A stretch of 62,614 nucleotides of DNA, counting the filler, from Sluysia triapertura (Eukaryota), in assembly GCA_046118255.1 (NCBI GenBank). It is 5 parts of 5 records of this genome, joined end to end, with 100 filler letters (N's around TTAATTAATTAA, not from the genome) between each part and the next. Parts side by side here need not be neighbours in the genome. Positions count along the whole stretch, not along the records: positions 1 to 13,435 come from JBJNIA010039802.1; positions 13,536 to 25,198 come from JBJNIA010182347.1; positions 25,299 to 37,012 come from JBJNIA010177586.1; positions 37,113 to 49,812 come from JBJNIA010088798.1; positions 49,913 to 62,614 come from JBJNIA010088574.1. One strand, 5' to 3'. A model generated the notes under the pieces. That model made no database searches. It was not told where the DNA came from and saw nothing but the letters and a program-made list of their open reading frames with translations. The translations under genes were made by a program, and so were the position numbers. Of this stretch, positions 4,030 through 54,392 are shown piece after piece. Position 1 is the first letter of the stretch. The number at the start of each line of letters is the position of its first letter.

Positions 4030-5861
4030 AAATAAGCATTCTTTCAATCATTATTTATACAATTGAAATTTTGGATCCATACTACGGTTTTTATCATTTA
4101 AGGTGATTATTTACAAGAAATCTTTGATTATTCTCTAGAAAAAGGAAAAATTGTGTTCATCTTCCATTAGTTACAACAAACTGTCATCATATCCGAATCG
4201 TGATTACCACAGTTTATTCTTTAGTGTTCGAGATTAATTCGTAAGCTTTTATTAATAAGTTACTCTTTATAATACCTAGAATCATACTTAAACTTTTAAA
4301 CATTAAAGCGAAGAATTATCCTGGCTTAAAATCTACTTTACATTCTTTAATATTCTATTTTAACAATTTAAGTTTGTTAAGAAAAAATAAAGATTCAAAA
4401 GCAAGATCGTGTAAATCTTCATAAAGAATTTGTTTTTTTATCAGCGTTTTATATTATCATTATCGTTCTTAATGTCATCATTTTTAATTTCATATATGTC
4501 GAGAAAGCAAAAAATTTAAAAGCAAGTTCTTGTATAAGTTTCAAAAAGAATTTTGTGTATTTAGTAATAATAGTAATATTAATAACATTCTTGTTATTAT
4601 TCTTATTACTATAATCATTTTATTTTTCATTATTATTCATTATTATCGTTTTATTAATTTTTAACCACATAAGCAATTAACTTGGTATCTGCCATCATCA
4701 GCAGTGACATTTTTAATTTGCATTTATAGTTTAACGTCACTGTTGATGATGGTTGTCATCACAATACAATTTGTTTGTGTGTCGATCTGCTTTTCTCATC
4801 ATTGTTTTGTGGTGTTTCTATTGGCCGTCCAACCAGAGCTAGCATTACTGTTTTTATCATTTCAATACCTCTGGTTGGACAAGCAATAAAAAATCGTCGT
4901 ACTAAAGATACAACTAAAAAAAGATTTAACAAATTCATAGAGCTTAGAAATTAAAAAATGGAAATTGTGGTCAATGTAATATAATTCTAAGGACAATGAT
5001 AGAGTTTTGCGGAAATTTAGTTATTTGGTTTCTCTTTATGCTTATCTAAAACGTCATTTTACATCTTCTCGCTTAATATTATTTAGAAATTTACCTTGCA
5101 TAAGCGAAAATAAAAGCTGTAATGAAATTAAGTGTGAGAAAAATATAATAGACATGCGAGTATTTACATCAAAATTCATTTAAAACTTCAGGTCCAAATG
5201 TTTTTATTCCATTTGTGAATAACTCGTATGCTTTAGTAACTGATATGTTTGATGATATTAATAATGAGTGTTACTGGGAAACTGTGCAAGCATTCGGTTC
5301 AATATTTGTTGTACGCCACTTAAAAAATATGGCAAGAAAGTCATTGGAAATTTACCTGATATATAAATTTGATTCAGTACAGTTAAAATTTCCGAATTAG
5401 ATAAGTTTATCTTTACTAGAGATCAATTATTTCAAGATACATCACAGTATAGAATTAGTTATTCATAGCTATTATTAAAAATTAAAGAATTTGAACGTAA
5501 AAAATGATCATATAACTTTTATTCAATTTTAATTAATATTATGACAATATTTGATGAACCTTTAGTGTATTAAGATCGAAAGACATACTAAATCTTTGTG
5601 ATTACAAAGATGTTGATGAATCAATTGATGAATTAATGAAGTTGAAAAAGATTGACGTTGTATTAATCTATCATAACGTGTATTCGCATGACACTAATTA
5701 CATTATACATGATAAAGTTTCAAATGAATTTATATCTGAAAAGATAAAGCAAGTAAATGAAGACAGAATGTTCCGGAAAATGATTTACGAACCTATTTCT
5801 GATTATCAAACCAATGTTACATGCTATACTGAGTACAAACAAGATACTCATGCTATCAAAG
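4030..5861 (+). mobile_element. Family B copy 1, degraded and interrupted at 5862 by copy 2
   Basis: ATT-rich tract 4560-4660, hairpins 4691-4753 and 4827-4880, then broken ORFs. Shares AGATCGTGTAAA (about 4404) with copy 2 (about 6671). Left boundary approximate. Confidence 0.55.
4691..4880 (+). ncRNA. Two-hairpin structured module, copy 1
   Basis: HP1 gccatcatcagcagtgac/gtcactgttgatgatggt (18 bp, 2 G-U). HP2 gtccaaccagag/ctctggttggac (12 bp perfect). Function as RNA is inferred. Confidence 0.55.
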
Positions 5862-6824
5862 TGTAGTGGTCAACACTCACAACTTTAAATTCATCAAAAT
5901 ATTACATTTAACACTCATAATTCAAACTTCACTAAAACATAATATCTAAAGCAATCACATGTCATACTATCAAATTACACCAACTCAATCATTATAAACA
6001 ACACTCTACATTGATAATATCTCATCATCTCATATGTACCAACAATTCGACTAACACCCTCAGCCATCTACGTCACAACATACTCAGATAATTAATCCCG
6101 AATAATCTACAACATTCACTCAAAAGCTATTCCATCAAACAAACCACAACCATAATACATAATACAGGAATCATAAATATACTAACACCACTTAACAACG
6201 TTAACAAGTACCTTAGACATAGAAGACATTTCCATCAAAATCTCTAACCAATTACACCAAACTAAACTTACTTCATTTACACATGTTCATCACCAATACT
6301 CATCTTAACGACACTACAAATACGCTAGGATTTATTTTGTAATCGTCTTTTAAAATTAAGCTAACTTCAACCTTTCAATAAGCATCCCAAACTATCATAT
6401 TCAAGGCATAAATCTTGTTTTTAATTACAAACCATTAATAAACTTCAGTAAATTATCCTAAACTTTTTCGTTTCAAACACAGCTCAAATCAACCTTTTCA
6501 TCTACATTAGTAAACAATACAAATTCTTAAAAATTCATCATTTTATTACGAAACAGTAACGCCAATCGAAGTTTAGCATATTACTTTACCGTCGCTACTA
6601 AAGTAACAACAACCGATTTTACTCTTCTTTCTACTTTATATATGTGAGAAATTAAAGAATTTAAAAGAACAGATCGTGTAAAGTCTTTAAAGATGAAGTG
6701 TATGCGTTTTATTTTAATAACAATAATAATAATCGCAATGTTATCATTGTTATTATTATTATTACTCTTATTAACTCATTAAATATAAAACATTTCACAT
6801 AATTGATGATCAATCCTGTTACTG

Positions 6825-6991
6825 CCATCACCAGTGTTGACAGTCTGTCACATTTCTCATTAGACTGTCAGCGCTGATGATGGTCAGTCATCAGTTATTC
6901 TTCGTGTTGATTATTAGTTAGAATTCTAATATTTTCATCCAATCGAGACCTAATTTTACCTTTATCAATTTTAAAGGCCTCGATTGGATGA
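6825..6991 (+). ncRNA. Two-hairpin structured module, copy 2
   Basis: HP1 6825-6883 (22 bp, 1 mismatch, 2 G-U). HP2 6935-6991 tcatccaatcgag/ctcgattggatga. Confidence 0.55.
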
Positions 6992-7269
6992 CCAATAACA
7001 ATACATGAAAAAATTAAGAAACTAAAAATAGCGTATAATACAATTTAATTATATCATATTAGTGAAATACAGAGCAGAAGTTTTAAAACGTGAAAAAATA
7101 AAACAGAATTGAATTTTATAAATTGAATTTTATTAGTAAATCAGTAGCACATTTTCAATAAAAATTATCTCTAAAATATTGCATTGTTGTGTGGAATTAA
7201 ATTTTATTTGCGAATTCTGTTGTACATTTTCGTAAAGTATTATATCTAAAATTTTGAATTTTAAAATTA

Positions 7270-8980
7270 ATGATCGGAGCTAATTTTTCTCAGACTTTAT
7301 CAATATTTAATAAAGTCAGATTACAGAATTTATTTTCATATCATTTTAACGGTAACATTGTTAACATCATCAATAATGGACATTCCAATTCAACTATTAA
7401 CTGTTTGAATATGATAATTGACGTTACCGAATCGACGTTACCAAATTCAACAACAGATGTCACTTTAGTAATTGTTGAAGAAAGTCAAATTATATTGCTT
7501 ACATCTCCATTTATATCAAAAATTGAGTCACAACCTATTGACTTTAGTTTTCATAGTAATACATTCAAGCAGAACCATCTATGAAGACAAAATTTTCAAT
7601 GCAAGAACCGACAGCAGTCCACAATACATCTCTTCCTGTAAGTTCTATGTCAAAAAAATCAAATTGCTTACAAGATAAAGATGTCTACTTAGATCATTCA
7701 TTAGTAACAACGTCAATGGTAATAAATAAAGAACGCCTTAATTTTGATAAGTTTAATGTCGACGAAATATATCTTGACAATGTTAGTAATTTTCCACCAA
7801 GAAATTATTCAATTAACTCGGCATCTTGTCTATATTCTGAAGACAATAATGTTGATCATATGAGATTAAACATTAAATTAGACTTATTACAAACAAAACA
7901 ATTGTGGCAAAATAATGCTATAAGTGCACTTAGTAATGTTGATCCTACCTATGAAAGAATGTATAATTTCTATGAAACCGATGAAAAAGTAGTTAACTTA
8001 GATACAAAACCCAGCATGATGGCTACCGCTAAAATACATATTCAACTGTGGTTCCTTATAACCGGCTAACTAATCAGAACTCGAGTTTTCGCAATCCAAA
8101 AAAATTAAGATAGACCCTTATTTGGTTTTCGAATTAACAGTATTTATCGATAACTATTCAGATATCCTTAATAATATCATTATGTTAGATAACAAAAGAA
8201 TGATCTACCACACCATCAAAGTCAAGTCGATTGTAGACCTAAGCTTATGTATGCAGTATCGAGACGTCGTCAATTTGCAACAATGTAAGATTTTATTGCT
8301 TAAAATTTTAATTGGTGAGTTTTGGGTTCTTTTTGACGGAATTACTATTCGTAACGTGATGAACTATGTGTTAATTTCAATATTAGTTTATGCTAGTCTT
8401 AACAGGTCCACGAGGAGCAACAAGCTGGTCTAACTATTCAGGGATCACGAAAAGAAAAGAAAACTAGAGATAAACTTTTAAATTTAAATAAAATTTTAAT
8501 GTTTTTAAACGAATACAAACGTGTTGATGCTATTATGTCAATTAATTGTGTTTTAAAATTTTTTTCATTAGGTCAAAGGAATAATAAATTTACTCTATGT
8601 TGTCTAAAATTAATCAAAGTAACTATCAATAACAACTTTAACGATTTAAAATTCAAATTTATTAGAATTGAATCTGATTATGCAAGGATTCAATACTTAA
8701 TTAAAAAATTGAAATTAAGATCTTGCCAAACTCTATTAGTGTAGAAAGCCCACCTACGGCTATTAGTAAGGATCTAAACAATCTTTATTCTCAGTGTGAT
8801 CTTCAATATAATTTTCAAAATGAGAATTCGTATACTAGACTGAACCAATATGAACATAAGCAGAAGAACCTTACGTCATTTATAAAGTCTATCAATAAGA
8901 TATTATCAGCTAACCTCGGGAGAATGATTAACTTTAAACGCTCTAAACACTTAAAACAACCAAAAAAGTCAATCGAATGA
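7270..8980 (+). pseudogene. Fragmented ORF region of family B copy 2, product unknown
   Basis: Run of same-strand abutting ORFs (7270-7584, 7581-8069, 8122-8433, 8499-8744, 8723-8980) with Ser/Asn/Thr-rich start and no recognisable domain. Confidence 0.4.
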
Positions 8981-9599
8981 TACGTCATTATAAATTGAAC
9001 CTCACCGGTCAATGCCTAAAACTTGGAGCTACTTGCAGTCTTGCGCACAATATTAACCAAGACTCTGCGACGACTTAGCAACATCACATAACAAGAGATT
9101 GGAACATTTACTACTCTCCTTGAAGAAGAAATCAATAAATACTGAAATTTTCTCAAAGACGAAACCCTTTTGGCAAAACAACGATTTGGATTCAATTAAA
9201 GTAAAACTTTATAAATGCAACAACAAATTTTTATTATTTATGACTTTTATTTTAGATATAAGAAATTGGATTGATCCCTCATGGCATATTTTAATTTTAA
9301 TTCGTGTTTTGAATTTTATAATCAATAAATATCAGGAATGTGCTTTCTTTCTTTTAGATCAATAAATTTAAAAGTAAATTTTATGGTAATTGTGAAGTTT
9401 AAAGTTTTAATATTTAAGTTTCTTAAATATTTTAAAAAAATAAATAAATTTAATAATATAATAGACATAAGAACAACAAAGTACTTAAAAATTTAGCATT
9501 TGTAATAATATGCTTTCTTAAAAATTTGTTTAACTTTTATTTATTTTGCTGCCTAAAGTAAGGTCGCTGACTCTAATCGGACGTAAAATATAGGAAAAT

Positions 9600-9922
9600 T
9601 ATTAAGGTCCACCGTTTTTGATATACGGTTGAAAACTATTACTCAAAATAACATTCTTGATTTGAATTTATAATTTGGACATAATAAAGTATTTTGAAAC
9701 TTAAAACAATTGTGATTTTAGTGTTATTCGTAATTAGCATTTGATAAACTTTTTTAAAAAACTGAAATTGACATTGCACAAGCCACTATAACCTTGCCCA
9801 AAATATATAATTGTTTCAAAATAAACCTACTTGTACCTTCATATAAGTTCTTCTAAAATACTGCTCACAACTTAGTCCTTAAGTGAGTAGGACTAAGATT
9901 ATAAGGGACTCGCAGCATAAGA
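9600..9922 (+). repeat. Dispersed repeat family C, copy 1
   Basis: caacttagtccttaagtgagtaggactaagattataagggactcgcagcataa and aaggtccaccg...cggttgaaaa match the reverse complement of 36660-36990. Confidence 0.65.
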
Positions 9923-11807: not shown

Positions 11808-12426
11808 TTAACCTCTTAATCCTCTTATTAACGTTTTAAACTCTGAAATATAAAAATACAATACAATATTTGATTAGTTTATCTAATATATAGATTTTCT
11901 AAATTTAGTAATTTAATAGTACACACTTTTTTTAGATTTTTTATGATGATTTTAAGTAATTATTATCTTATACTATTTATCATTGTAAAATATGAATAAA
12001 AAATTTTATTTCTTTAAAATAGTGTCATTATTGAAAATTAATTGTTTTTTAGGTTATAGAATATTGGCTAATATTTTAAAATTAAGTCCTTAACCAACGG
12101 ATTTTAAATAATTTTTTTATATTTTAACAAAGTATTATCGCATATTGACAGGATATACTTATTTTGAAAAAATAATAACCGTTAAAATCAATGCGATCAT
12201 CTTTATTAGTATCTGCTTCATTCAACATTTCAATCAATTCCGAATCCGTAATTTCAGGCATAACATTTCTCATGACATATTCAAGTTCAGAAAAATCAAT
12301 ATAACCATCGTTATTCAAGTCAAAAATCTATATAAAATCCCAATTAATCAATAATTACTTTTATAGCTTTAAAGAATCAATTACCAGGAATAAATCCATC
12401 ATTTCGCTTTCTGGCATTAAATTCAT
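11808..12426 (-). CDS. Calmodulin-like EF-hand calcium-binding protein, 3' exons (12385 to about 12426, 12180-12327, 11808-11842)
   Basis: GT-AG splicing gives MNLMPESEMMDLFL|IFDLNNDGYIDFSELEYVMRNVMPEITDSELIEMLNEADTNKDDRIDFN|EFKTLIRGLRG*, with two EF-hand loops. The 5' end is uncertain. Confidence 0.85.
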
Positions 12427-17726: not shown

Positions 17727-18658
17727 TTATTTTATATTTACATCAACATCAAGACTTGTAATAAGAGCTATCGACCGATACGATTGATGAAGTTCGCAAA
17801 GTTTCTTACCCAACTGAGCTCTGTGCGTTATACGATGACTCGGAATCTGAAGCATAAGTGACAGAACATTTGAATCTAAATCATTACCTAATATTAAAAT
17901 AGCACCATGAAGTCCACTATCCTTCAAATTAACTGTATATTCTTTTAATCCGATTTCATTTAACCATTTTATAACTCGATCGTGTGTCCAAACAATTACA
18001 TCTACGTAATCTGCTTGATAGGCTTCACGTCGTTTTTTCTAATTCAGTTTTGTTGTAATTGAGTTTTCGTAAAAAACAAATTCCATGTTGTAAACTGCTT
18101 CTGTGAAAGAAATCGTGAAATTTTAAATGAACTCGTAAATCTTTCTTAGTTAAATGTTCTAACACTCGAGCATCAACAAGGTTTTCCATAAAGCTTGATC
18201 TATATTGACCTAATCCGAGACTTGGTAACCACTGCTGCCGAACCCATTCATGATCCAATTCACCATGGATAAATGGACTGTGCGAAATTATTTGACCAGT
18301 ACTAGTTCGAGCACTATGTTGTTGCTGTCCCATTTGAGTAACTTGAACCATTTCGTGAATTGCCAACCGCAATTTTAAGCGATGTAAAGGATTACTTATT
18401 CAAATTTCATGTTGAATTTCTTGATCACTTAATGATGCCATTATATGGCCTGATTTCACATTAGCACGACAAGCAGCCACATACCAAGCTGGCTGCTAAC
18501 CAAGCAACAATTGTAGGATCATTCCAAAACGTAAAAGATGTTTTTGCATGCATCGCTTCTACTAATAATTCTTTTTTCTTTCTTCGTTTTTCTTCTGTCT
18601 GCTTTCCAAGAATGTAATAATTTAAGGAAACGTTATCTGTATTATTGTTAGTCATCAT
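17727..18658 (-). pseudogene. PPFIA: Liprin-alpha (SYD-2/PPFIA) triple-SAM region, intronless and disabled
   Basis: [86 protein letters not shown] and LKDSGLHGA are liprin-alpha SAM1-3 motifs. Lesions: deletion/frameshift near 18495, TGA in place of Gly at 18400-18402, extra base in the 6-nt homopolymer at 18033-18038. Low-complexity coding-like sequence may extend it to about 17160-19060. Confidence 0.9.
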
Positions 18659-19137: not shown

Positions 19138-21273
19138 TGTGGTTATTATGTTGAAATATTTATGTTGAAATTTATTATGAAATTTTATTATGAAAATTAT
19201 TATAAAAGTTATAAGAGTTATTATTTGGTATTTATATTATATAACAATAATGACTATAATTATTACATATATTTTAATGCGATCTGAATTGTAATAATAA
19301 TAGCGATAGTTCATGATGATTAGATGTGATGGTCATGTTTGTTTTTGAATGAGTTTAGTAGTTTGTTTAATAGTCTGTGTACATATGGAGTGCCTGTATG
19401 TGATGAAATGTGATGGATTTTATGTGATGAATTCCCTACAATTTGTTTGGATAACTTTATATGTTTCGAACTTAACTATTCCCATGCTTAGCGCTGATTG
19501 CTTTGTTCCACAGTTTATTCTAAAAGAATCAACATATGCGATGAATTTCATATATCGTTCTAATATATTGTTAAAGTTGATAGAAATGTCCTAACAGTTG
19601 TCAATAGCTGAATCCACTCGATCCCCAGGAAACGATAGAATGAAATTTTTGTGAAACAATTTATCAATTATGAAGGAATTTGTAAGTGATTCTAAATTTG
19701 TTGAAGTTATATAGCCAAACGTTTTGGTTAGAAACATTTGATATAAACACATTTGTTCAGACGTGTGAGATTTCTTAGACTTCACATAACAAGTTGATGT
19801 ACATCTATTCATTAAGCCAAAACTAATTTTACAACTGAAACATTCCCTTCAATAATTGATGTTGTAATTCCTTCTTCTTTGGCAACTTTGTAGAGATAAT
19901 GACCATCTTCTTTTTCCTTACAAACATGTTCCTTCTAACTGAAATGTAAACATTACTTCTTCGTCTTTTCCATCATTATTGAAGTAAATTAAATCTGAGG
20001 AACAAGTTGCGAGAAAACCATTTACTTTCATACAAGTATTTACTGATTTTAACTCGAAATAATCGTTATAGTCCTCTAGTGAACTTATTCCACATGTTAG
20101 CTTTTGTCAAATTTTTTATTATCATAAAAATTTTTAATAATAATCTTTGTTGATTCACTTTCTGTATCTGAGTGGCTGCCTAATCAAAACGCAAAAAGTA
20201 GATGACGTGAATGGCTTTAATTGGACAGTCATCCAAACACTGAGAAACAAAGATAGTAAATACATGTCATGAACTGTCATCAGTCGACAGTTAGTAAAAT
20301 AACTGATTTAAATGATTTTAGATGGCAGGTTACTAATATGAAAATTTTTATGAATGCAGCAAATAGAGCCACTATCAGTAGTGACAATAAATTGTGATTG
20401 TAAATCAATAATAATACAAATAAATAACAAATTAGTGTATGAATAAAATAAAATAAAATTGCTAATTAATTTAAAAAACATAAATTCTTTATTTCTTTAT
20501 GCTGAGAATACAATGTTTTTATTTATTTCTTTAGTTTCTTAACATATTAAAATTCTTGAGTTCTTCTATTTTTATTTCTTACGTATTTAAATTATCTTAA
20601 TATAGCTGATTTTCTTAGTGTGGATGAGAATTGAAGAAATGTGACCTAGTCGAATTTCTTAGGTTGCTTATAGGGCATATGTTGTGGTTCTTAGGTTATG
20701 TGTTGTGAATGAACTGTTTATATATAAGCTTTTATTAATCAGGTGTTACATCTGAAAGTGCCAGTGATTTCTGTGTGGTTATAATATGGATTTGAGAAGT
20801 TTTGAATTATTTTGAAGATGTAATTGTAATTCTGGTGTTGTGAGATGATGAATGAAATGTGTTAACTGGGTTTTAATATGTATTAATGATCTGAAATTGA
20901 ATGTAATTTTAATATTGTAAGGTATAAACTGGAAGTGTTTTATATGAATTTTTAAATAAAATTTGACGCTTTTGGAAGAAAGTAAGGTTTGGATGTGGAG
21001 ATTGGAACTTGAAAGTGCATTGAATTCGTTTTAAATTTATATCTGATGGTTTTTAAGATGTAAATTGTAGTTCTAATGTTGTGAGATTGAGTTAAAATGT
21101 CCTAAATGAAATTGAAATGTGTTTAATGAATTTAAATGCTAATCGATGTAATTATGGTTATGAGTGAAATGTTTTTAATGAACCTTTAAAATGTTTATTG
21201 CAGATTCCGAAGGTGAATGTAGTTTATGTGATGGCTTAATAAAATTTGTAACAGTAATAGGTTGGTCACCACA
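19138..21273 (-). mobile_element. Family B copy 3, apparently complete (2.14 kb)
   Basis: Termini TGTGGT (19138) and ACCACA (21273); flanks ATTA/CTTA (3/4). On the minus strand: G-poor leader, ATT tract, hairpins 20274-20328 and 20174-20230, then a decayed ORF (e.g. 19591-19812). Confidence 0.65.
20174..20328 (-). ncRNA. Two-hairpin structured module, copy 3 (more degenerate)
   Basis: Minus strand: HP1 ctgccatc...gatgacag; HP2 ctgtccaattaaagc/gttttgattaggcag, which pairs through several G-U only on this strand. Confidence 0.45.

Positions 21274-25298: not shown

Positions 25299-25368
<70 letters not shown>
25299..25368. repeat. (ATT)n microsatellite at contig start
   Basis: Perfect run. Confidence 0.95.
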
Positions 25369-37313: not shown

Positions 37314-37352
<39 letters not shown>

Positions 37353-37448
37353 CAATTTTATCATTTTATTCGTCATTATTATTATTATTATTAGTATCAT
37401 TAACATTTTTGATCATAATCATTTTAATAAAGTACAAATGAGCAAATT

Positions 37449-37602
37449 ACCACCATTCATACTGACATAATTAATCTCTGTGTACAAATGAATGTCAGCA
37501 TGAATGGTGGTTTACCTCTCATCAATTTAGTCTGCTCATTATTACTAGTCGTCCAACCAGAATTGTTGTTATCATCACTTTATGTTTCTCTGGTTGGACG
37601 AC
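37449..37602 (+). ncRNA. Two-hairpin structured module, copy 4
   Basis: HP1 37449-37511 (20 bp, 1 mismatch). HP2 gtcgtccaaccaga/tctggttggacgac (14 bp perfect). Confidence 0.55.
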
Positions 37603-38029
37603 AAATCAAAGTGAGGTAAAATTAATTATATCACAACCTAGTTAAACTGTAAATACACAAAGAGATATTACTAGCAATTGAATGATATTTATTTTTTACT
37701 GTCATCAAATTATTACCCAATTACAATCATTTTAAAGTTCAGTTATATAGTTTGGTTTGTAATAGCTACCAAAAAAATAAACAGAAAAAGACAAAAACAG
37801 TACAGTTATAAATTAAAAAATCATAGTACGAAGTATATTAATCAAAGATTGTGAATTAAATTTTGAGGCCAAAAATTTCATTATCGAAGAACTTTTATAA
37901 ACATAGTAATTAACCAACAATAATTAGTGAATTTTCACGTTCATAAATTATAATCATTGAAGTTGAAATAGTGACAACTCTGTCTGAATTATATTCATTA
38001 GTTCCAAAATTACCAACAAAGTAGATCTT

Positions 38030-39073: not shown

Positions 39074-39080
39074 ACAAATT
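38477..39080. repeat. Compound minisatellite: 33-bp x4 then 39-bp x about 12
   Basis: CATGAAGGTTCAATAATTAGTACAAGGTTATCG at 38477, 38510, 38543 and 38576, then degenerate TTGATCCTTTTAATTCAAT... units. Confidence 0.9.
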
Positions 39081-39777
39081 TAAGATTACGACAAGACGAC
39101 CTCATGTGTGCAGTCGTAAAGCAATGATGAATTGGTTGGATATGTATAATAACAAAATAACAATTAGACGACCCAGAATACAAATAAACGTTCTGCTTAA
39201 TACAATACTGTCATACAGTTGTGATATGACGATGGTGCAGTCGTGTCCACTCAAAAAGGATAGAGTATTAGAATTCGTTAACAACACCAAACCGTTCAAG
39301 TTAATCGTTTCATTAGATGAAGTTGCATATACTATTACCGAACCTATTACGAACTTAGGTAATTCTTTTATATTACAATTTTATTATAATTACTTTTATA
39401 ATCATTGTTATATTTTTTTAATTGTAGTAATTTTGCCATTCACCAAGTCAATGAATCGAGAGATATTAACAAAATTTAAATTAATTAATAATTCCATACC
39501 GTTTTATGTTTTACAAATAAATAGTTGTAAATTTTGTCTTCATGAATTTGATTTTTATTTTATACGAATTTTAAATGTTCATATTAAGACATCAATGTAT
39601 CATACATTATACTTTAAAATAATAGACCAAACAATCATGATTCCAATTGATATTTATAAAATTCATATTTCAAAAACTTACAAATTATCTAACGTAACAG
39701 CACCATTTAATCTAATAATCATCTACATGATGATCATAAACAAATTATGGCACATTATAACCCCATCCACACCATAG
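39064..39777 (+). CDS. Family B downstream ORF (237 aa), probably the frameshifted continuation of 38030-39073
   Basis: Overlaps the previous ORF and begins with LLDKFK, continuing the 13-aa repeat phase. No known domain. Confidence 0.4.
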   Translation: MLLDKFKITTRRPHVCSRKAMMNWLDMYNNKITIRRPRIQINVLLNTILSYSCDMTMVQSCPLKKDRVLEFVNNTKPFKLIVSLDEVAYTITEPITNLGNSFILQFYYNYFYNHCYIFLIVVILPFTKSMNREILTKFKLINNSIPFYVLQINSCKFCLHEFDFYFIRILNVHIKTSMYHTLYFKIIDQTIMIPIDIYKIHISKTYKLSNVTAPFNLIIIYMMIINKLWHIITPSTP

Positions 39778-39940: not shown

Positions 39941-41145
39941 CAGAAGTCGTCAGCATTTTGGGGCCTGATTGCGTTTTATGAGAGTGTCGAACCTCAGGGG
40001 TTTTTAAAAATATTACATAAAAAATTTTATCAAAAAGTATTTTTTCAAATTGCTTAAAATCAATAAAATAATGAAGATTCTTAAAGATATTTTAGTTCTA
40101 TATATAATAAGCAAGTAAATTGACAAAAAACAATGTATTTTAAAAATCTTTTGTATTCAAAAATCCAAAATTTGAATAATTATTGGGAAGCTTGATGTTC
40201 TTTGTCACCTGAAAGCTTCTCAATATTGGGTGCCAGGCTTGTCGATGCCAACAGCAAAACATTATTAAAATTGCTATCGGTTAATCTTGTTCTCAATTTG
40301 TTTTAGTATATATCAATTTTGAAAATAATTACTCACATTAGTGAGTGCTTCCAAACAAAGATATCTTTTTTTGCATGGTTCACTAGGTTAGAATACTTTC
40401 CATTTGAATAAATGTATTTTCTATAAAAATCAAGCAAATAAACATCGGAGTGAAATTGTAATTTCAATAATTCGTCACAGTGCATTTCCGCATCAAAAGG
40501 ATTAGCAAAGAAGCTTGAATTCATTCTTCAGATTTTTGATTAGATTCACAAATATTTCTGGATTTTGTGGTTTGTATTCTTGAAGGGATGGTATCTAGTT
40601 TTCATGCTGAAGCTGACATTCTCACAAGTGTAGTTTTCTTTAAAATGTAAGACTATGACCAAATATTTCATTTATAAGCTGAGATTTACCTAGCAAGTGT
40701 AAATTCAAGTTATTTAAATGACTACAGTTGAAAAATATTGCATTCGCTGCAGGCGTTCATTAAACAACTTTTAACATCTAATGACATCTCTTCAGTACGT
40801 CTTGTGACAGTCCTATCTGATAGACTTATGGAAGAAAATAATGACTTTTTCTGGAAAACAATGTCCACCACTCTCATTAAACATTATTTAATAAATTTAC
40901 CATCCACAAACGGTTTCATCTTTTCAGCGATAAATCTTGACACTTCATAGCTTGCATGCGTATTAGCTTCACATTCACTTATTTTCTTCGTAAAAATGAG
41001 GTCTGCTTTTCAAAGTTTGATTTAAGCTGCTTAACTTCATCATTCAAATGATGGGTCATGAAGTGACACTTGATATTTGCCACTTTATTCACAGCAACCT
41101 TTGCAAGGCAAAATAATTTCGCGGGCCGTAGGTTGCCGAACCCTG
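39941..41145 (-). mobile_element. Internally deleted hAT transposon (SPIN/Charlie/GTF2IRD2-like)
   Basis: TIRs CAGAAGTCGTCAGC and (reverse complement) CAGGGTTCGGCAAC. 8-bp TSD GTACAAGA/GTATAAGA. Remnants ASYEVSRFIAEKMKPFVDGKFIK, SISLSDRTVTRRTEEM and LRTRLTDSNFNNVLLLASTSLAPNIEKL. Confidence 0.9.
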
Positions 41146-44100
41146 GTATAAGAGATTGAATCACAAAAGAAATAGAATTATTACCAACTCTTACTTTGAT
41201 ATTTTTTGCAATGTGATCATGTGAGATGTGACAAAAACTGCAGACAAATATAAAAACATAATGGAATAAATAATTTGATTATTTTATGTTTAATAATTAT
41301 AATTTATGATACCGTGATAAATGAGGTTAGTTAATATGAATGCTTTAATGTTAAATAATCAGTTTTTTCTATTCAATTACATTTACTCTATAAATATTGT
41401 TTACAGATATCAAAAAAGAAAAAATTATTGCAAATTAAGTTTACAGATTAAACGATGTTGATAAATAAGATTTTGGAAGTTGAATGGGTGGACATAACAC
41501 ATAAAATATCAAATATGAAATGATTGTTAAATAGTTCATTCCGTAAGAATATCATCAAATTCAAGACCTTCGATCAAGGATCATCTACTAGGTAAGAACT
41601 ATGATTGTGACCAGTATGTCTGGTTCATCGTCTGCATTGATAGGAGATGGAATATCAAAATGATGTTTGTTTTAACTGCGTTTGTTGACTGTGATAATGT
41701 TTTATAGTACACTGAGTGAACTGATGGCCGATCACCGTATTATTTCGTATAACAGAACAAAGCATAATATTTGAATTATTTGATGTTCTTAACTGTCGAT
41801 TTAAAGATAATGGAGCTTGATTATGTGTAGATATGACATGGAAATTGTTGCTATTATTAGTAGTAGCCAAAAATATTGGACTACTACAATTATTAGATGT
41901 GAAAGTGAATGAATGAGCATGTTGTCTAGTAACATCATTATTTTCACGATATTATGACTTAGTAAAATGTTGCTATCTCTTGCGTTACTATATGCTGTTT
42001 ATTGATAGGAACTGAGTAGTACTTTTCATATCTACAGACTGGGCCAAAATAGTATTTTTTATTTTAATATCTGGCATACCGACTCATTCCACTATTACTA
42101 TCACCTTCATAATTATTTGAGTTTGTAAAAGTGTTAAAAGAAATGAGATGCAAGTTAAAATAAAGAAAAAATATGATAGAAGGTTAGGAAGAATTAAGAG
42201 TGTTTTTGTAGAAATTTCATTGTTATAAAAACTGTCTATTTTTAAGTTTTTTATGTTGGTGTTCTAGGTTTGTATGCGATTGTATATATGTTTAATATTT
42301 TGAGTGTTAATTGCGGTGTTTTGTTTATTTGTTTTGGATGAAATTTTAAATGATAGGTTTGAACCACCACAATTAGAACCTAACATAAGAAAACTAATTA
42401 CAAATTCTCCTTTAGTTTGGATACTGTTACTGTTATCTTAATACACTTTTGCTAATTCTCTGATATTGATCTTATGAATACATTATTTCCTTCGCGTCAT
42501 GGCTTCAAACTCAATAAAAAGATATCATTTATATAAATGATATGTGCAATGATAATATATATTGTTTTTTATTTACTTAACAATTTAAAATTTTATTTCG
42601 ATTTGTACTAGAATATGGCAGGCAAATTAGTATTCTATTTATACCATTCATTACAAGGTGAAGTATTACAGAACTATTACAAATTATTATGAGGCAAAGA
42701 TGAGCATCCTTGATACTGATTATAATGCGATCACAGATTCATATTAGTATATATAATCATAGCTTGTTCTATTCTTAACTTTAATTCAGAGAGTTAATAC
42801 ATACTAGTTAACAGATGGCCAGTAGAAATTATAAGCACTAGTATACCTATTATTTTTATCAATCTTGTAATTTTGAGTTTGATTTATTTAACACTCAAAC
42901 GTACTATTAATAAACGATGTGATATATGACAATAATGAGTGAAAAGGCTAACGTATAGTGAATACAACATAATAATTAATTATTAGTAATTAAAAATAAA
43001 ATTATATAATAATAATATTATTAAAATTAAATGAATAATAATAATGTATACTATTAATAAAAAATTATTTTGAAAGTTTAAAAGCAGAAATAAATTCCAA
43101 CCAATTCCTGATCAAGTATCACGATAAATCGCTATAAATAGCGATCAAAAATAGTAAATATAAGAAGCTTTATAGACTAATTAACAAAGCATTTAGTTGA
43201 ATTATAAATTTGCACGTAGATAATTTGGAAAATACATTAATTTACCATTTAGTTTACACATAACATGAATTTGAGTCTAGAGAAAACGATTTACGGTGAT
43301 GCAATTTATAATAGGATCGTGTTAGCCTTTTCATTTAAGTTTTGTATCCCTAAGCGATACATAAAATCGACTAAAAATCATATTTAAATTTTTTGACCGT
43401 TTTAAATAGGTCAATAAAATAAATTTAAAATTTTAGTTTTCAAATAAATTTCTCGTACTTTAGTCTGGTAAATTTGTTAGAATTTTTATTGTCACGTATT
43501 GTCAAACTTTATTTAATATTTTTGAATAAAAAGAATCAAAATTTTATAGTTTTAAGGTTATAAAATAGTTACATTATCTGTTTTAACTGGTTATTTTAAA
43601 TGCACCTATAAATATATTTTCCAGTCCTATTTTAAATAAGGACTTAAAATATCTTATAAATAAATTGTTAAAATAAGTGTTAAACCTTCATTAGAGACTC
43701 TAGTATAACAACTACTGAGAGAGTTAATAAATTAATAATAAAACAGTCGAACTAGTTTAAGAAATAACTAACTCTTATTATTACTGTTTCGTTTATGAAT
43801 CTTGTGAACAAGTCTTACTTCAGTAAGTTTTGGATCACAGGCGAACTCACTGAATTTTTAAATTAATTTGTGCTAGTAGGATTAGAAGAAATCACAGTTG
43901 TACTATTATTTTCTTTTCTTGCCATTTGTAGATTTTTAGCCGAGAAACGCATGTACAAATGCTTCCACTACTTTAATATTAAAATCTGTATACATTTTAA
44001 AATTATTAGTATCTTTAAATTTGAAAATATTTTTTCTGGCTTCAACATAAATAGTTTGTTGTCTGGATACTAAATATTCTGTATGATAGTGGAATTGCCA

Positions 44101-46738
44101 TGTTGATCAGTACACATTTTGTGCCTCTATGGTTTATTAAAAGTTATACAATTTTCGTTAATCGAAACTGAGTGAATTTTTGGCCAATCCATACGTACAA
44201 CAGCTTGGTAAGTAGAATTATAATAATAAGCTAACTCACAAAATTTCATTCAATTACAGCCATAAAGACATACCGTGTTTTTCTTAATTCTTAACCTACG
44301 GAAAAATAAAATTAAGCAGATTACAGTAAACGACTTATGACGTAGAGTGGTTGTTCCTGTAACTAAAATAATCGTGTTTTATATGAAAATTTGAATTAAT
44401 ATATTACTTTAGTAATTATTCCTACTCTGTGGTAAATCTATAATTCGAGATAATCTAATCGAAATTTTATTCTCTTAACTTTATTCTAATCTCTTAAGTA
44501 TTTCACTAAAATTATTAAACAAAAATGTTTAATATTTATTACAAAAATTCAAAGGTTCTCAGATTATATAAAAATATTTAATTTTAATTTGTTTGATTTT
44601 AAATTTTTTTTCTTCAATAAATCGGAAAATAAATGAGCAAATAAATTAATATAGATTTTACCTCGGATTTTAATATTTTGATCAAAAGAATCAAAACAAT
44701 CTTACAGAAATAACTTACTAAAATGGATGGAAATAATTTGATAGGAAAATTGTTGTTGAACGCCAATTGATAACTTCACTTTACATAACTTTTATTGTAA
44801 TCCGAATTGATTTTTGTTTTTGAGCTGATGAATAACTAATTTTATTTGTGATTTTAAACTAAATTTATGTTAGTATATATCAGTCACCAGCCAATCAAAA
44901 AATAGAATTTCTTGAAAATGTTTTTGTTTCGAAAATATGTTTAGAAAATAGGTTTCCTTTTTTGGAAATAATTTTTTTCATGGAAATTGGCTATTTTAAA
45001 TGATTTGTGTTAAGAAATTTGATGATTTGAGAGGTTGCGATGACAACTTAACAAACACGAAGAAATACGTTGCTATATAAAGAGATTGATTCCGAAATAT
45101 TTGAAGATATTACTACAATTAAGTGCATACATTCGTACTTCGAGAAATAAGTCTGTATTTATTATTATTTTAAATAATTCGCGAACAGGAAGCTAAAAAT
45201 GTATTTCTAAATTCATAAATATATTTGGATGTATAATGTTTATGACTGTTGCGTTATTAGTCTTTAAATTATTTATTATTTTAACAATTAGAAAATTACA
45301 ATTTATTCTAAAATTTTTATTAAAAATTATAAGTTTAATTGAATCTTTACTAAATAACAAAAGAAAATGACAAAGGGATGACATAAATTTATTTGAGATA
45401 TAATTGAATATTATATTTAAATTTGTAACAAAAAATTGTTGCTTATACCCAATCTCCCGGTCAGTTTGCGAATTCCGAAATAAAAATAGTCAACATAAAT
45501 TAATTTGATAGCAATATGATTAAAAATTACCTTTAATAAAAAATTGTCAGAAAGAATGTTCGGTCTAATGTTATTAGGCAGATCCTTTTTAAGTTTGGAT
45601 TCAAATTCGTGAAATAAAAATGTATGACTATTTTCTAGAGTAAATTTTACTTATTCCACATTCAATGTTTCTAATACATATATAACTTGTTTGTAAAATA
45701 CAAAAATCGTATTGATTGAATTATCAGTTTCATCTAAATCAGAGTCTCAAAATTTGACTGATTTTTTCTACTGATAATGTAGGAAAAGTAGTACAGTGAC
45801 AAAAAGCGTTTTAATTTGTTCAAACGTAGGCGTAAACGTCACAGTTTTATATAATTTCAAATAAATTAGCACATTAAAAATTAAAAAACAATTTTTTATT
45901 TCTACGTTATATATATCCATATTAAATGACATACAATACTTTGAACCACTAAAATCATCAGGTAATACCGAATCAAGAACTGAATGACGCTTTTCTAACA
46001 AATTATACTTTCGAAGAGTTTTACTTAAGCATTCATTAAAATAATTACCTGATTTGATTTCTTTCGATCGTTCTAAATTCCGAAAACAGTTTTGTATTCT
46101 TCTACCAACTTTCCGTTTCATTTCACTATGACATTTGCTGTTACACTCTTTTAAATAATTTAAATATCCTTTTCAATTTCAATATTAAATCGATTTAATA
46201 TTCCATTACTATTAGCAACAAAATTTTTGTCGACAATATCCGTTCATAAGAAATACAAATATGACGAAATAATCTTTCCATACGAATTGGAAATTGTACC
46301 TTATTATTTGTTTTGTCAATACATAACTCCAACCAAACTTCAAAATCATAGCAGTCATTCTGTTCAGAAAACTTTTAGAGTCTAAACAAAAGAACTAAAT
46401 TACAATCTAAAATTTCTTCTGGTACACTTTCATTACTAATTTCATTAACATAAATTAACATATCTTGCGGTTGATCTAAAAAGAATTTACTAATTTTTGA
46501 CATATTTTCTTTTATCATAGGCATCTGGAGTACGAACGATTATGATTTAGTTATTTGAATACAAAATGTTCAATCAATATCAGCAGTCAAATGTTTGCTC
46601 CAATTATTTATTTTTTTAACTCTTTTATTCTTGTCCAAAAAATTTTTCAATCTGTTGCTACTTTTAAAATTTTTTAAAATCACTCTGTACACAGTAAATT
46701 GTAATTGTGGAATTCTAATGTTGTAAATGAATAATGAA

Positions 46739-46935
46739 TTTGATTGGGTGACCAATCGTTTGATTTTTGTAATGCAGAATAAATAAGATATTAGAATGTC
46801 ACTCGTCAACCAATCAAAAATGAGAGGCATAAAATTTAATTGAATTGTAAAAAAACCTGGTAACCGTCATCAATTTATGTTAAATCGATTATTTGTATTA
46901 AACTAAATTAGAAACTGTCAATTGATGACGGTTAC
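46739..46935 (-). ncRNA. Two-hairpin structured module, copy 7
   Basis: HP1 gtaaccgtcatcaatt/aattgatgacggttac (16 bp perfect, 46860-46935). HP2 tttgattgggtgac/gtcaaccaatcaaa (46739-46818). Decayed minus-strand ORFs follow (45768-46121). Confidence 0.5.
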
Positions 46936-47309
46936 AGGGGTTAGTAAATTAAAAAATTGCTAAAAATTAACAATTTAGATTATACAAAATTAATTAATGA
47001 ATAAAAATGATAATAATAAAAATTAGAAAAATTACGAAAATTACATAAACCATTTATTATCTTAAAACATGAACTTGATTCTTTTGTAAATTAATCTCTT
47101 CTCTTTACATATTATCTCCTTTGAATAAGATTTGTTGAGCGACTAGAAAGATATGAATTATGGAAAAAGCTGATAAGAGAATATTTAAAGGAAACAATGG
47201 GTAGCTAAAATGTTAAAAGATGTTATTTTGATTTCAATGTCCAAAAATAGTTTAAAATTGTTAGGTTAATGTTTTTCGATGAAATTTCAAGAAATAAATA
47301 TGGTATCGG

Positions 47310-47606
47310 AGATTCGGTCATAATAAAACATGAAATTCCACTAATAGAAGACAAATTAATTAGAAAGAAATTATATATAATTCCGTTATGTAATCAACAA
47401 GAAATGAAAAACCAGTAGATACAATGAAAAATGCCGGAGTAATTAGACCAAGTTTTTCACCATTTTCTTCGTCAGTTTTACTAGTTAAGAAAAAAGATGG
47501 AACAATGAGATATTGTATATATTTTAGAGAATTAAATAAAATAACAAGAAAAGATTTATTTCCATTGCCAAGAATTGATGAAGTGTTAGAATACTTGGTA
47601 TACTAA
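47310..47606 (+). mobile_element. Ty3/Gypsy reverse transcriptase N-terminal fragment, decayed
   Basis: IKHEIPL...[55 protein letters not shown] is a typical Gypsy RT start; upstream stop, truncated before YxDD. Confidence 0.9.
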
Positions 47607-49912: not shown

Positions 49913-51559
49913 ATTAAATTGTTTAATTCTTCAGATAACTCCTTTGATAAATCCAAATTGTACACTTTAAAATCGTTGGTTCTTAACATAATAGTAAGAT
50001 CGTTAACAACTTTTACACTATCAATAACTCGTAATAGCGAAGAAAATTATTTATCTTTTTGTTCCGTACGAATTATCATCATATAAAGAATAGAATGACA
50101 TAAAACGCCAGTTAAGACATGCGTTGAAAACATCATTAATTTTGCATCGATATTCATGTATAGTGCAATCAAATCTTGATCCATTTTAATGTTTAAGCAC
50201 GAAGAAAATTTACTAATTGTATCAGCTAATTTTTTATTGTCTGAATTATTTATTAAACTCATTAGCAAATTTTTATTTAAGTCAAATAAATTTTTGATTG
50301 AATCACTAAACTACTCAAAATTAGTTTCTAATTCTGTCTGACTTCTGCCTGATTGAAAATTGTGAATTTTAATTAACTCTGTCTTATTTTTTGTCATCCA
50401 ATCAGAGTATTGAAAAGTAAAATGTATAATATTTTGTAATTAGTTGTACTCTGATTGGGTCACGTTTGGTGAGTAGATGAAAATGCCAATAATCAAGGAC
50501 TGACGAAAATTGATTTTTATAAAGTATGTCTGATTGCGACCATCATCAACGTTGACAGTCTAATGAAAGATATACATAGACTGCCATCGTTGGTGATGGC
50601 AGCAACCAGTTTAATCAACGTTAATCAAATTTTTATTTATTTTACAATGGTATTAATAATAATAATAACAATAATAAGAACAATAAAATTATTGTTATTA
50701 TTATTCTTGTAAAGACTTAAAAAAGAAAAAAAACGCATAAACCTTTTAAAAAATCTTGACATAATCTTTTCTGTCGTTATCTTGAATTGTTCTACATATC
50801 AACAAAAAGGAATAAAATAATGTCATATTGTGAAAGAACAACAGGAACTAAATATATGATGTATCATTTGTGGTTGTTGTTTCACAGTATGATAATGAAG
50901 CCTTTAAAGTTTTCTTAAATTTGTTTTTAACAGATGTAATGGTTTAGGTTGTAAGTGAAATGAAGAATGTTAGAATGATTTATTGAAACTTATTGAAGGT
51001 TTATAAGTTAAAATCAAGATTTATTCATTAGATTTAATGGTTTAATGAAAGGTTAAAGTTATTTTAATTTTAAATGATGATTACAAAATAAATCTTGATA
51101 TATCATAATGTTATTGCGAATAATTGTGAATGATGAATAAGGATATATGAAGTGGGTTTAGGTCGGTGTTGTTGATTAAGGTTTTAGATGGATTGATCTA
51201 TGTTTCTTAAGTATTTGTTAGGGTTATTTGATAATGCTATTATATTTATGATTTGTGAAGTTTATATTATGATTGTGGTTTGTTTGTTGAAGTATCTGGT
51301 GATTGAATGTTGTGAATTGTTCGAGGCTAGATGTCGAAGTTTGTTATGCTATGGATGGTTGAAATGTTAGTTGGATTGTTTATATGTGTGAGTTGATGGA
51401 GTGTTGAAAATGTCGAATGTTATTTTATGATGTTTGTGTTGGTGTAGTTCGAAAGTAAAAAGTGTGATTATTTTAAAATTTGAATTTTGGTGAAATTAAA
51501 TTTGTGAATGATGAATATAAATTTTTGATGGATTTTAATTATGAGTGTTGGCCACTACA
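49913..51559 (-). mobile_element. Family B copy 5, 3' part lost at contig edge
   Basis: Ends GGCCACTACA (51559). Reverse complement is colinear with 5862-7000. Hairpins 50540-50599 and 50397-50459; ORF 50047-50268. Confidence 0.75.
50397..50599 (-). ncRNA. Two-hairpin structured module, copy 5
   Basis: Minus-strand HP1 ccatcaccaacgatggcagtcta/tagactgtcaacgttgatgatgg (23 bp, 2 mismatches, 1 G-U). HP2 ccaatcagagta/tactctgattgg. Confidence 0.55.
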
Positions 51560-52679: not shown

Positions 52680-54044
52680 TCATTGTGTGACATTTACTAC
52701 TACTATTATTATTATAATTATTATTGTAGAGGGTTGTTGTTTCTTTTGTGTAGAATTAAGATGTTTCAACGTTATTGAGGGCTTTGTCAGTTTAAATTGA
52801 TTTGAAAAAAAATAGGGATGGCACAGTTGGAACTTTTGAATGAGACAATTACTTGCAAGGTGATCAACGAAAAATTGTTTGCGTATCAAGATATTGTGAT
52901 GCACATATTTGCTGGAATTTAAAAACTTAAAGAATCCTACTTCGTTTAGGTCAATTGTAATTCTAATGTCAACGGTCGTTGCATCTTTCGAGATTTCGAC
53001 CTTAGTTTGTTTATGGTGTGAGTTAACTATAGAAATATTACGTAAAACTTGCAGAAAGGTTCTATCAAAGTCTCGGTTGTTACTTAACTTAGAAATCTGT
53101 TGATTCACTTTATTTTTGAGATTAATGAAATTTACAGTTACATTATAACACCAAAACAGTTTATAAGATTTACAAAATATATATATTACAATTTTAAATT
53201 TATAGTTGTAAGAAAAGAGATTCGCTGGAACTGCAGGCGGTTGTATTTCTTTCCCCATGAATCCGTGAATGTTGAAACTTGCCCTAGGAATAGAGTTATA
53301 AATAATATGATATATAATATTATTGGAGAAGGTAATAATAAAATTTAATGTCAACTTATTACTTGATAGGTACATGCTTTCTGCCTGACTGTCCACCAGC
53401 TTGCCGTTACCAATACATAATAATATTGTTAGATTATATTCATCATCATTTGTATTTTGTTCGACACTGCCAATAAGTAATAATGCTCTGAGGTCGCATT
53501 CGCCATAGTTCGTACTCTGCGTTACATTGAAAAAACGAGATAATGTTCTAGGATCCGATTCGCTGTCATCTACACTCTGCTTTATACTACTAACATCGAT
53601 TGCACTCTGCTTTAAATTACTAACATTGTTTGCACTCTGTTTTACATCACTAACATTGTTCGCACTCTGCTTTACATTAATGACATCGCTTGCACTCTGC
53701 TTTACACTAATAACGTCGTTCGCACTCTGCTTTACATTAATAACATGGTTTGCACTCTGCTTTTCATTGATAACATCGTTTGTACTCTGCCTTACATTAA
53801 TGACATCGCTTGCACTCTGCTTTACATTACTAACATTGTTTGCACTCTGCTTTGTATTACTGGCATCGTTTGCACTCTGCTTTACACTAATAACATCGTT
53901 CGCACTCTGCTTTACATTAATGACATCGCTTGCACTCTGCTTTTCATTGATAACGTCGTTTGTACTCTGCTTAATGTTACTAGTACATGGTGATATGCTG
54001 AGATCACGCTCATCATCGTCTAACACCCAAGGGCTTTCCATCAA
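52680..54044 (-). CDS. Family B-associated ORF (454 aa) with 10-aa repeats (KQSANDVINV) x about 14; function unknown
   Basis: Longest ORF in the window, intronless, about 300 nt downstream of the HP2-type hairpin at 54341-54392; stays open for about 290 codons beyond the repeat. Confidence 0.6.
   Translation of the reverse strand: MMESPWVLDDDERDLSISPCTSNIKQSTNDVINEKQSASDVINVKQSANDVISVKQSANDASNTKQSANNVSNVKQSASDVINVRQSTNDVINEKQSANHVINVKQSANDVISVKQSASDVINVKQSANNVSDVKQSANNVSNLKQSAIDVSSIKQSVDDSESDPRTLSRFFNVTQSTNYGECDLRALLLIGSVEQNTNDDEYNLTILLCIGNGKLVDSQAESMYLSSNKLTLNFIITFSNNIIYHIIYNSIPRASFNIHGFMGKEIQPPAVPANLFSYNYKFKIVIYIFCKSYKLFWCYNVTVNFINLKNKVNQQISKLSNNRDFDRTFLQVLRNISIVNSHHKQTKVEISKDATTVDIRITIDLNEVGFFKFLNSSKYVHHNILIRKQFFVDHLASNCLIQKFQLCHPYFFSNQFKLTKPSITLKHLNSTQKKQQPSTIIIIIIIVVVNVTQ
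53570..53975. repeat. 30-bp coding minisatellite
   Basis: Unit about TGCACTCTGCTTTACATTAATGACATCGCT, about 14 copies, with degenerate copies near 53455-53530. Confidence 0.95.
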
Positions 54045-54340
54045 TTGAAATTATTTGTAATTTTCAAAATGACTGAATTTGTTGAATAATTGAATCGTTA
54101 TAGTTTTCCAACTATTGATTTTAAAATATACTCAGAATTGTGTATTGAATTATTTTCAATATGTCTGACTACTTAGTCTAATTGTTGTGTGTCTCGTCTG
54201 CTGATTACTAATTGTTTTTTCATACAGTACTGTCTAATATAATCACTGTTTTTTTATTCGCTGTTTTATTGAAAATGCAGTATAGTTCTCTTTTTTAACT
54301 AACAATTTTCTTTGTTCTCCACTGTTTGCCATTAATGAAT

Positions 54341-54392
54341 GCCCAATCAGATTCGTTGTGGTTGTAATAATGTGGTAATAATCTGATTTGGC
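54341..54392 (-). ncRNA. HP2-type hairpin, module copy 6 (HP1 absent or reduced)
   Basis: gcccaatcagatt/aatctgatttggc, lying between an AAT tract (54460-54615) and ORF 52680-54044. Confidence 0.4.

Follow-up and report, generated by a model that had tools for sequence, protein, structure and literature searches.

What keeps the two arms of a hairpin complementary when both are being rewritten, and what would such a hairpin do for the DNA that carries it? These questions are raised by a stretch of 62,614 nucleotides from Sluysia triapertura (GenBank assembly GCA_046118255.1; here the window), made up of five contigs of ~12 kb joined by N-linkers and with a GC content of 19–31% per 2-kb bin. 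In this DNA, one hairpin (HP1) is followed by a second (HP2), and the two-hairpin module recurs ahead of open reading frames (ORFs), most of them decayed. The hairpins are real, and the module is a genuine co-varying signal in the leaders of undescribed mobile elements. We tentatively read the hairpins and a repeat that lies upstream of them (repeat B) as a structure at the junction between the long terminal repeat (LTR) and the leader of a family of LTR-type elements, an explanation that we prefer while holding it with somewhat less than even confidence.

Recurrence of the two-hairpin module

A preliminary description had counted seven copies in four independent contigs. The positions held, and we number them copy 1 (4691-4880, +), copy 2 (6825-6991, +), copy 3 (20174-20328, -), copy 4 (37449-37602, +), copy 5 (46739-46935, -), copy 6 (50397-50599, -) and copy 7 (54341-54392, -, HP2 alone); the seven sites sit in four of the five contigs. 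Completeness and independence did not hold: both stems are complete in only four of the seven (copies 1, 2, 4 and 6), copy 3 (broken HP1) and copy 7 are partial, and the copies do not represent independent samples, given the 72% identity of copies 2 and 6 upstream (660 of 920 aligned columns). The stems are as follows.

4692-4752 (+): HP1 of copy 1, arms 4692-4711 and 4733-4752
4827-4880 (+): HP2 of copy 1, CCAAC type, 12 perfect bp
6816-6894 (+): HP1 of copy 2, core 6825-6883, C.A mismatch at arm position 7
6935-6991 (+): HP2 of copy 2, one base lost from both arms
20274-20328 (-): HP1 of copy 3, degenerate, 3′ arm recognizable and stem broken
20174-20228 (-): HP2 of copy 3, weak
37449-37511 (+): HP1 of copy 4, 19 of 20 pairs Watson–Crick, both arms rewritten
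37548-37602 (+): HP2 of copy 4, 14 perfect bp, CCAAC type
46860-46935 (-): HP1 of copy 5, 16 perfect bp, both arms having lost two bases
46739-46818 (-): HP2 of copy 5, rearranged, arm order swapped (GATTGG...CCAATC)
50530-50609 (-): HP1 of copy 6, same C.A mismatch as copy 2
50393-50463 (-): HP2 of copy 6
54341-54392 (-): HP2 of copy 7, without HP1 and without a significant repeat B upstream
44800-44920 (-): eighth, degenerate remnant, a direct repeat of the HP2 region of copy 5, 1.9 kb downstream

Eight of the ten perfect GC-containing inverted repeats of at least 9 bp in the window fall within module sites. The HP1 pattern matched three loci and the combined HP1+HP2 pattern two, compared with none in 100 shuffles for either, and folding z-scores were −6.7 for copy 1 and −9.2 for copy 2. 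Copy 3 gave no match to the HP1 model at E ≤ 2 and a module z-score of −1.2; the top HP2-model score near HP2 of copy 5 was 14 bits. The remnant near 44900 had an alignment score of 48 (shuffles, 25.5 ± 3.7; maximum, 36), and a covariance-model search of the window returned no further full copy. Stem loops measure 14–52 nt. The spacer between HP1 and HP2 has no significant structure on either strand, and a conserved middle hairpin was dropped as a candidate (z of −1.6 or weaker).

The preliminary description recognized no known RNA family here, and an Rfam search of the window agreed, with 0 matches at the gathering score. Beyond the window, the HP1 pattern (validated on the window) had 0 matches in viral contigs and 0 in prokaryote genomes; the HP2 pattern had four in viral contigs, without HP1 or a common context, which we take as chance. 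The combined pattern found three metagenome loci, two of which are identical (L005 and L006); the third (L007) lacks HP1. As a separate observation, the 3′ arm of HP1 contains a perfect 10-nt palindrome at 6864-6880 in copy 2 (TCAGCGCTGA) and at 50561-50545 in copy 6 (TCAACGTTGA), and the centres differ yet remain palindromic, as expected of a dimer signal, in these two related copies only.

Co-change of the arms and strand symmetry

Two-sided changes affect 8 of 18 pairs in HP1 (five copies) and 9 of 14 pairs in HP2 (six copies), and in neither case did any of 500 shuffles score as high; these controls ignore relatedness and take the structure from the same sequences. The HP2 count is inflated, three of its nine double changes (columns 18–20) being partly due to the single indel of copy 2. 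Pairing is maintained in the variable inner halves of the arms. Individual changes described before were recovered: CCAAT/ATTGG has become CCAAC/GTTGG at 4691-4880 and 37449-37602; a base has been lost from both HP2 arms in copy 2, as have two from both HP1 arms at 46739-46935; and the change of HP1 pairs to A–U and C–G exists, but in the copy at 50397-50599 rather than in the ‘copy 5’ to which it had been assigned. The two-sided indels are equally compatible with copying from arm to arm and with pairing at the DNA level.

With stems defined without regard to strand, 156 of the 167 core pairs (93%) are Watson–Crick; on the ORF strand the remainder comprises 4 G–T, 4 A–C and 3 other pairs, and the extended stems have 11 G–T against 13 A–C. 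G–U pairs had been said to fall mostly on the strand of the downstream ORF, a bias that disappears in these counts (4 versus 4 and 11 versus 13); the claim was probably misled because folding one strand reveals only the wobbles of that strand. This bias was the sole strand-specific argument for a selected RNA structure, and the predominance of Watson–Crick core pairs likewise leaves that structure unproven. In five of six modules the antisense strand folds, as RNA, with an energy equal to or below that of the ORF strand. CpG decay as the cause of stem mismatches was dropped (it fits 1 of 11).

The upstream repeat

The module is larger than first reported, in that a common motif block begins ~200 nt upstream. 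An ATATGT motif lies 181–252 nt ahead of HP1 in all six HP1-bearing copies, followed ~60 nt later by a T-rich motif in five of the six and then by an ATT tract. In copies 2 and 6 this block closes repeat B, a C/A-rich unit of ~1 kb with a sharp start at TGTAGTGG.

5862-6815 (+): repeat B of copy 2, ~1 kb, C/A-rich, G-poor, start TGTAGTGG, GC skew −0.76
50610-51559 (-): repeat B of copy 6, start TGTAGTGG
20336-21273 (-): diverged B-like repeat of copy 3, start TGTGGTGACC
37113-37448 (+): 3′ portion of the copy 4 repeat B, truncated where the contig begins
4380-4691 (+): upstream block of copy 1, with ATATGT at 4494, then a T-rich motif after ~60 nt and a tract rich in ATT
46936-47180 (-): upstream block of copy 5, ATATGT at 47112
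~42110-42371 (-): short B-like stub, start TGTGGTGG, C/A-rich, without hairpins

Between copies 2 and 6, all segments of 5863-6900 align far above local shuffles and the left flanks do not; clear homology stops just after HP1, the spacer and downstream DNA do not align, and HP2 aligns weakly. The part of B in copy 4 aligns to copies 2 and 6, and the block of copy 5 to that of copy 1 (0 of 200 shuffles as high in each case); the stub matches repeat B of copy 2 at a level reached by 1 of 200 shuffles. The diverged repeat of copy 3 resembles repeat B in start, skew and distance (~950 nt), and its full-length alignment to copies 2 and 6 is marginal. Clear homology of copy 1 to repeat B is confined to its ~300-nt block. 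DNA farther upstream of copy 1 and DNA upstream of copy 7 were rejected as B homologues (not significant). A profile search of the window for B found only copies 1, 2, 4 and 6, in contigs of ~12 kb beyond which partners may lie. Strongly G-poor DNA follows each of four B-type starts (TGTAGTGG twice, TGTGGTGA and TGTGGTGG); two match the 5′ LTR motif of the CsRN1 clade, TGTGGYG as listed in Table 3 of PMC3601003, exactly and two with one mismatch.

In a single public DNA run, depth was 25,000–36,000 over B, ~29,700 inside HP1 (position 6845), 314 at position 6917, 290–1,500 over the downstream ORFs and ~13 for unique-looking pieces. These values are summed contig depths rather than copy numbers, from a run that may be the source of the window itself and is therefore not independent; its contigs are continuous through introns and intergenic DNA. 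We use them solely to note the high repetition of repeat B and HP1 and the lower repetition of the ORFs.

Downstream reading frames

Remnants of ORFs lie directly downstream of the module, on the same strand, in seven of seven copies. Stop-free frames of at least 80 codons cover 64% of the downstream sense strand, compared with 18% of the antisense strand and 9–13% of the background.

4881-5861 (+): decayed orphan ORF after copy 1, whose last frame stops within the opening bases of the copy 2 repeat B
6992-9362 (+): chain of frameshifted ORF pieces after copy 2
19430-20173 (-): decayed Cys-rich orphan ORF after copy 3
37988-39777 (+): two overlapping ORFs with tandem repeats after copy 4
45196-46738 (-): decayed orphan ORF pieces after copy 5
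49918-50397 (-): frame of 160 codons following copy 6, interrupted by two stops and truncated at the contig end
52680-54050 (-): orphan ORF following copy 7, open over 456 codons and containing 10-residue repeats

Word searches, HMMER, Atlas searches and exact look-ups (0 of 10) returned no homologues of these ORFs beyond two fragments, and Pfam was searched with the 150 longest frames plus 25 read-through or short frames. The fragments are a first helix of the CBP/p300 TAZ1 domain in the copy 4 ORFs (~38414-38480; phmmer against PDB, E = 5e-6) and a weak Unkempt-type CCCH finger near 8990 in the copy 2 chain (PF25427, E = 5.5e-4, below the cut-off). The second copy 4 ORF had no Atlas match, the copy 2 piece at 7581-8066 no homologue and the copy 6 frame 0 matches among 1.84 billion representatives; the copy 7 ORF likewise had no homologue, and its single-sequence model was unusable (predicted local distance difference test, 31). 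A stretch of the copy 2 chain at ~9075-9130 (+), without a Pfam match, presumably resembles the end of an intermediate-filament rod. No significant similarity was found among ORFs of different copies. Module, ORF and module follow one another in the same orientation, 1.9–3.9 kb apart, in three tandems (copy 1 to copy 2, copy 7 to copy 6, and copy 5 to the remnant).

A proposed role at the LTR–leader junction

We tentatively place the hairpins and repeat B at an LTR–leader junction because of the sharp TG start, which resembles the CsRN1-clade integrase motif, the highly repeated 1-kb unit and the same-strand ORFs right behind it. Repeat B is likely to be the LTR, the hairpins likely serve as a replication signal at its end, and the elements are likely a group of non-autonomous or truncated LTR-type retroelements. 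The earlier suggestion of a mobile-element leader signal is thus supported by the repeated DNA, by the consistent strand of the ORFs and, in the best copies, by the position of the module at the end of a repeat that starts with TG. HP1 would occupy the position expected of the transfer RNA (tRNA) primer site and would let reverse transcription begin in the absence of a standard tRNA site. Either the end of the LTR would fold onto the leader next to it, the mode suggested for the GalEa Conserved Hairpin Site (CHS), or self-priming would take place; HP2 would be a leader or packaging stem. The LTR cycle copies the primer into the primer site each round. An HP1 arm acting as primer would be re-copied into the other arm in every cycle, which would produce the near-pure Watson–Crick co-change of HP1; primer copying does not account for the co-change of HP2. 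In a more far-reaching form that we regard as unlikely, HP1 would be the tRNA-independent primer of an undescribed group of animal LTR elements, re-copied from arm to arm, with HP2 as packaging stem and a short leader that alone lets orphan ORFs and host fragments (the CBP TAZ1 helix) be carried.

No tRNA primer site (CA, 0–5 nt, TGG...) was found at a common position in six copies, in a test made without the tRNA set of the organism and in a window with 0 tRNA genes. After a candidate CA within the 3′ arm of HP1, the following bases are complementary to the 5′ arm over 16 nt in copy 5, 11–12 nt in copy 4 and 9 nt in copy 1. Given a putative LTR end at this CA, a length fit for self-priming (at least 10 nt, 0–5 nt past the LTR end) is present in two of six copies (4 and 5), and the duplex is interrupted by the C.A mismatch in copies 2 and 6. 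A sharp 5′ TGTRGTG is present in copies 2 and 6 with no common matching 3′ end, and no convincing target-site duplication (4–6 bp) was found around B.

Several results weigh against the junction. We found neither a 3′ end of B that combines a matching short inverted repeat with a target duplication nor a polypurine tract ahead of the B starts, and AATAAA-like hexamers ahead of HP1 (four of six copies) are near background. No second LTR lies within 6–12 kb downstream of copies 2, 3 and 4 except for a marginal C/A-rich stretch after copy 3, rejected as a 3′ LTR with 13 of 200 shuffles as high. The downstream ORFs contain no gag, protease, reverse transcriptase (RT) or integrase according to Pfam and phmmer (the latter with 0 matches), and neither pair counts nor folding energies show a strand preference that would support RNA structure. 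Depth also falls to 780–2,000 inside repeat B, and because of these dips the end of the LTR is not pinned down by the fall in depth behind HP1. Finally, an LTR end inside HP1 leaves the two-sided indel of HP2, and its recurrence downstream of the copy 5 ORF, unexplained.

Alternative explanations

The stems may instead act in single-stranded or cruciform DNA, as the end signals of an element that picks up host gene pieces and is of rolling-circle (Helentron/HINE-like) or some other DNA-based type, with DNA-level selection or arm-to-arm copying keeping the arms alike. We consider this doubtful, but the 93% of Watson–Crick core pairs with no G–U bias, the two-sided indels in two copies, the microsatellite-like ATT tract beside the stems and the host fragments within ORFs, together with the failure to find a target duplication, all point in its direction. 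In copy 2, moreover, 9 nt near the 5′ end of B complement the 5′ arm of HP1, 53 nt before the homology end, a layout near that described for the subterminal inverted repeats (subTIRs) of HINEs (PMC4067079). That match drops to 6 of 9 in copy 6 and is shorter than the described 11–15 bp; a search of the copies for subTIRs of such length found none. The ends are TG rather than T-runs or TT, no Rep/Helicase was seen, and the stems are internal with ORFs behind them in every copy. An ordinary promoter repeat followed by a leader for translation or packaging that is selected at the RNA level and plays no part in priming is less probable still. The position of the module directly ahead of ORFs and the inner arm halves that vary yet stay paired would suit it, as would the ATG that copies 2 and 6 have at the foot of HP2; but this ATG is replaced by ACG in copy 4 and ACA in copy 1, so that a start codon is not conserved among the four complete copies, G–U pairs are rare and unbiased, and the spacer shows no significant structure on either strand.

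To a similarly low degree we credit a Penelope-type origin, in which B and the hairpins would be a pseudo-LTR (pLTR) moving unrelated ORFs or host DNA in trans, in head-to-tail units. The three module–ORF–module tandems fit such units, and pLTRs with 18–38 bp palindromes, overlap with ORF starts and host-gene mobilization have been described (PMC3846280). The sole metagenome locus with both hairpins, L005 (identical to L006), is a palindromic repeat: its positions 100-490 and 3001-3300 are fully palindromic repeats of 100–300 bp with CCTGATGATGG...CCGAAAC cores. We take CCTGATGATGG-CCGAAAC to be a Penelope hammerhead core, and the repeats are presumably derived from Penelope-like elements (PLEs). 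However, this locus was picked by our own pattern and nests the motifs differently, and Rfam returned no hammerhead even there; in the window, neither a hammerhead core (CTGAnGA...CGAAAC; 0 matches, as with Rfam) nor, by Pfam, a frame with RT and GIY-YIG was found, and the 5′ start of B is fixed, unlike that of upstream pLTRs, in which truncation is variable. A pair of pre-miRNA-like hairpins, proposed earlier, or inverted CCAAT-box elements in the promoters of a host gene family are highly improbable. The stems are long, and CCAATCAG, presumably the core of the NF-Y box, is enriched (5 versus 0.9 expected), but the loops of 14–52 nt, arms that vary jointly with neither fixed, the lack of an Rfam match, the change from CCAAT to CCAAC on both arms in two copies and a setting of repeated DNA with decayed ORFs do not agree with precursors of microRNAs or with promoter boxes. 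We retain the LTR–leader junction as the best explanation.

Other features of the window

Animal genes are present in the window according to Pfam (rootletin, liprin-alpha and an EF-hand protein). The source genome has no close annotated relative, the top liprin match being 63%.

55674-62539 (+): rootletin host gene with short introns (Pfam)
11815-12420 (-): EF-hand protein, host gene (Pfam)
36128-36448 (-): weak NAP-domain match, listed as a host gene (Pfam)
2017-3806 (+): repeat A, 1,790-bp unit with ends TGTTGGG...CCCAACA and a 4-bp AATA duplication
24839 and 49812 (both -): relatives of repeat A, the latter cut by the contig end

The liprin-alpha SAM region at 17730-18600 (-), directly after the copy 3 element, has no obvious introns, one stop and frameshifts, and may be a processed pseudogene or cargo. 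Repeat A at 2017-3806 is likely a solo LTR, reaches a summed contig depth of ~690,000 across its first 1.2 kb and shows that this genome has long LTRs, a point in favour of the junction reading; it was dropped as a piece of the hairpin element, having its own ends and its own duplication. A second repeat pair (9586-9920 and 36661-36940), with a GC-rich inverted repeat at 9871-9897, is unrelated to the module. Three further pieces without Pfam matches carry provisional labels: fragments at 21800-22100 (-), which we take to be Polinton/Maverick-like (integrase-type WFDPK..SY and a KGGF motif), and decayed pieces that by eye presumably resemble the start of a Gypsy RT (47250-47603, +) and a hAT transposase (40730-41140, -).

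Relation to known elements

Priming without a tRNA site is known among LTR elements for Tf1/sushi and only hypothesized for the GalEa CHS and for the TRIMs of bivalves. A short two-hairpin module that persists across families diverged by ~30% or more, in an animal that lacks close relatives with annotation, would offer a compact case for testing such priming; should the ORFs be cargo, the module also points to one way in which orphan and chimeric genes are dispersed through this genome. Were it only the end structure of a repeat family that has already been catalogued, it would amount to ordinary transposon anatomy. We found no description of the hairpin motif in the passages covered of the open full-text literature on element classes and mechanisms, in searches that were not made by sequence and did not take in Repbase or Dfam.

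Like the ends of Helentrons, HINEs and DINE-1, the module combines inverted repeats beside a microsatellite with the lack of a target duplication and the capture of gene fragments, but it has no subTIR pair of the HINE kind (11–15 bp, 2–4 nt from the 5′ end and 38–60 nt from the 3′ end) and no TT ends, and its stems are far longer and internal (PMC4067079). Cryptons were dropped, with no features matching those in the relevant part of PMC3212892. The pLTRs of Adineta vaga, which overlap the ORF start and can mobilize host genes, resemble the module in having a terminal repeat with palindromes beside an ORF start, unrelated DNA between repeats and tandem units; here, by contrast, there is no hammerhead core and no RT/GIY-YIG, the TG start is fixed and the repeat measures ~1 kb rather than ~200 bp (PMC3846280). 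Naiad PLEs also do without the hammerhead (PMC8557442).

Tf1/sushi elements prime with their own 5′ end (PMC4600332, PMC6317226, PMC10085805, PMC7175516). As in their pretzel, bases after the candidate ...CA complement the interior of the repeat (copies 5, 4 and 1), with a second helix stacked inside. The third duplex was not seen, folds of copies 1 and 2 showing no pairing of the bases after the 3′ arm with the HP1 loop; the C.A mismatch breaks the duplex of copies 2 and 6, R+U5 would measure just ~45 nt, and whereas the Tf1 primer is the RNA's initial 11 bases, the sole conserved TATA-like motif here lies ~200 nt upstream. In fungal GalEa elements and bivalve TRIMs, a conserved hairpin replaces the primer site by a mechanism that is hypothetical (PMC5445492, PMC6934838). 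The GalEa CHS differs in its 9-bp arms (CTGATCAGT/CTAATTAGT), its fixed A/A mismatch 7/3 and its place in complete Copia elements, where it immediately follows a defined end of the LTR (PMC5445492), whereas the module has arms of 16–30 bp and unrelated sequence, a C/A mismatch in two of five copies only and a second hairpin, with LTR end and pol not found. The two are alike in being hairpins with a variable loop (12–41 nt in the CHS) that are better conserved than their surroundings and stand where a tRNA primer site is absent, and the mismatch of copies 2 and 6 pairs position 7 of the 5′ arm with position 3 of the 9-mer 3′ arm, as reported for the CHS (PMC5445492). The module belongs to none of the families tested and most likely works like a hairpin that replaces the primer site.

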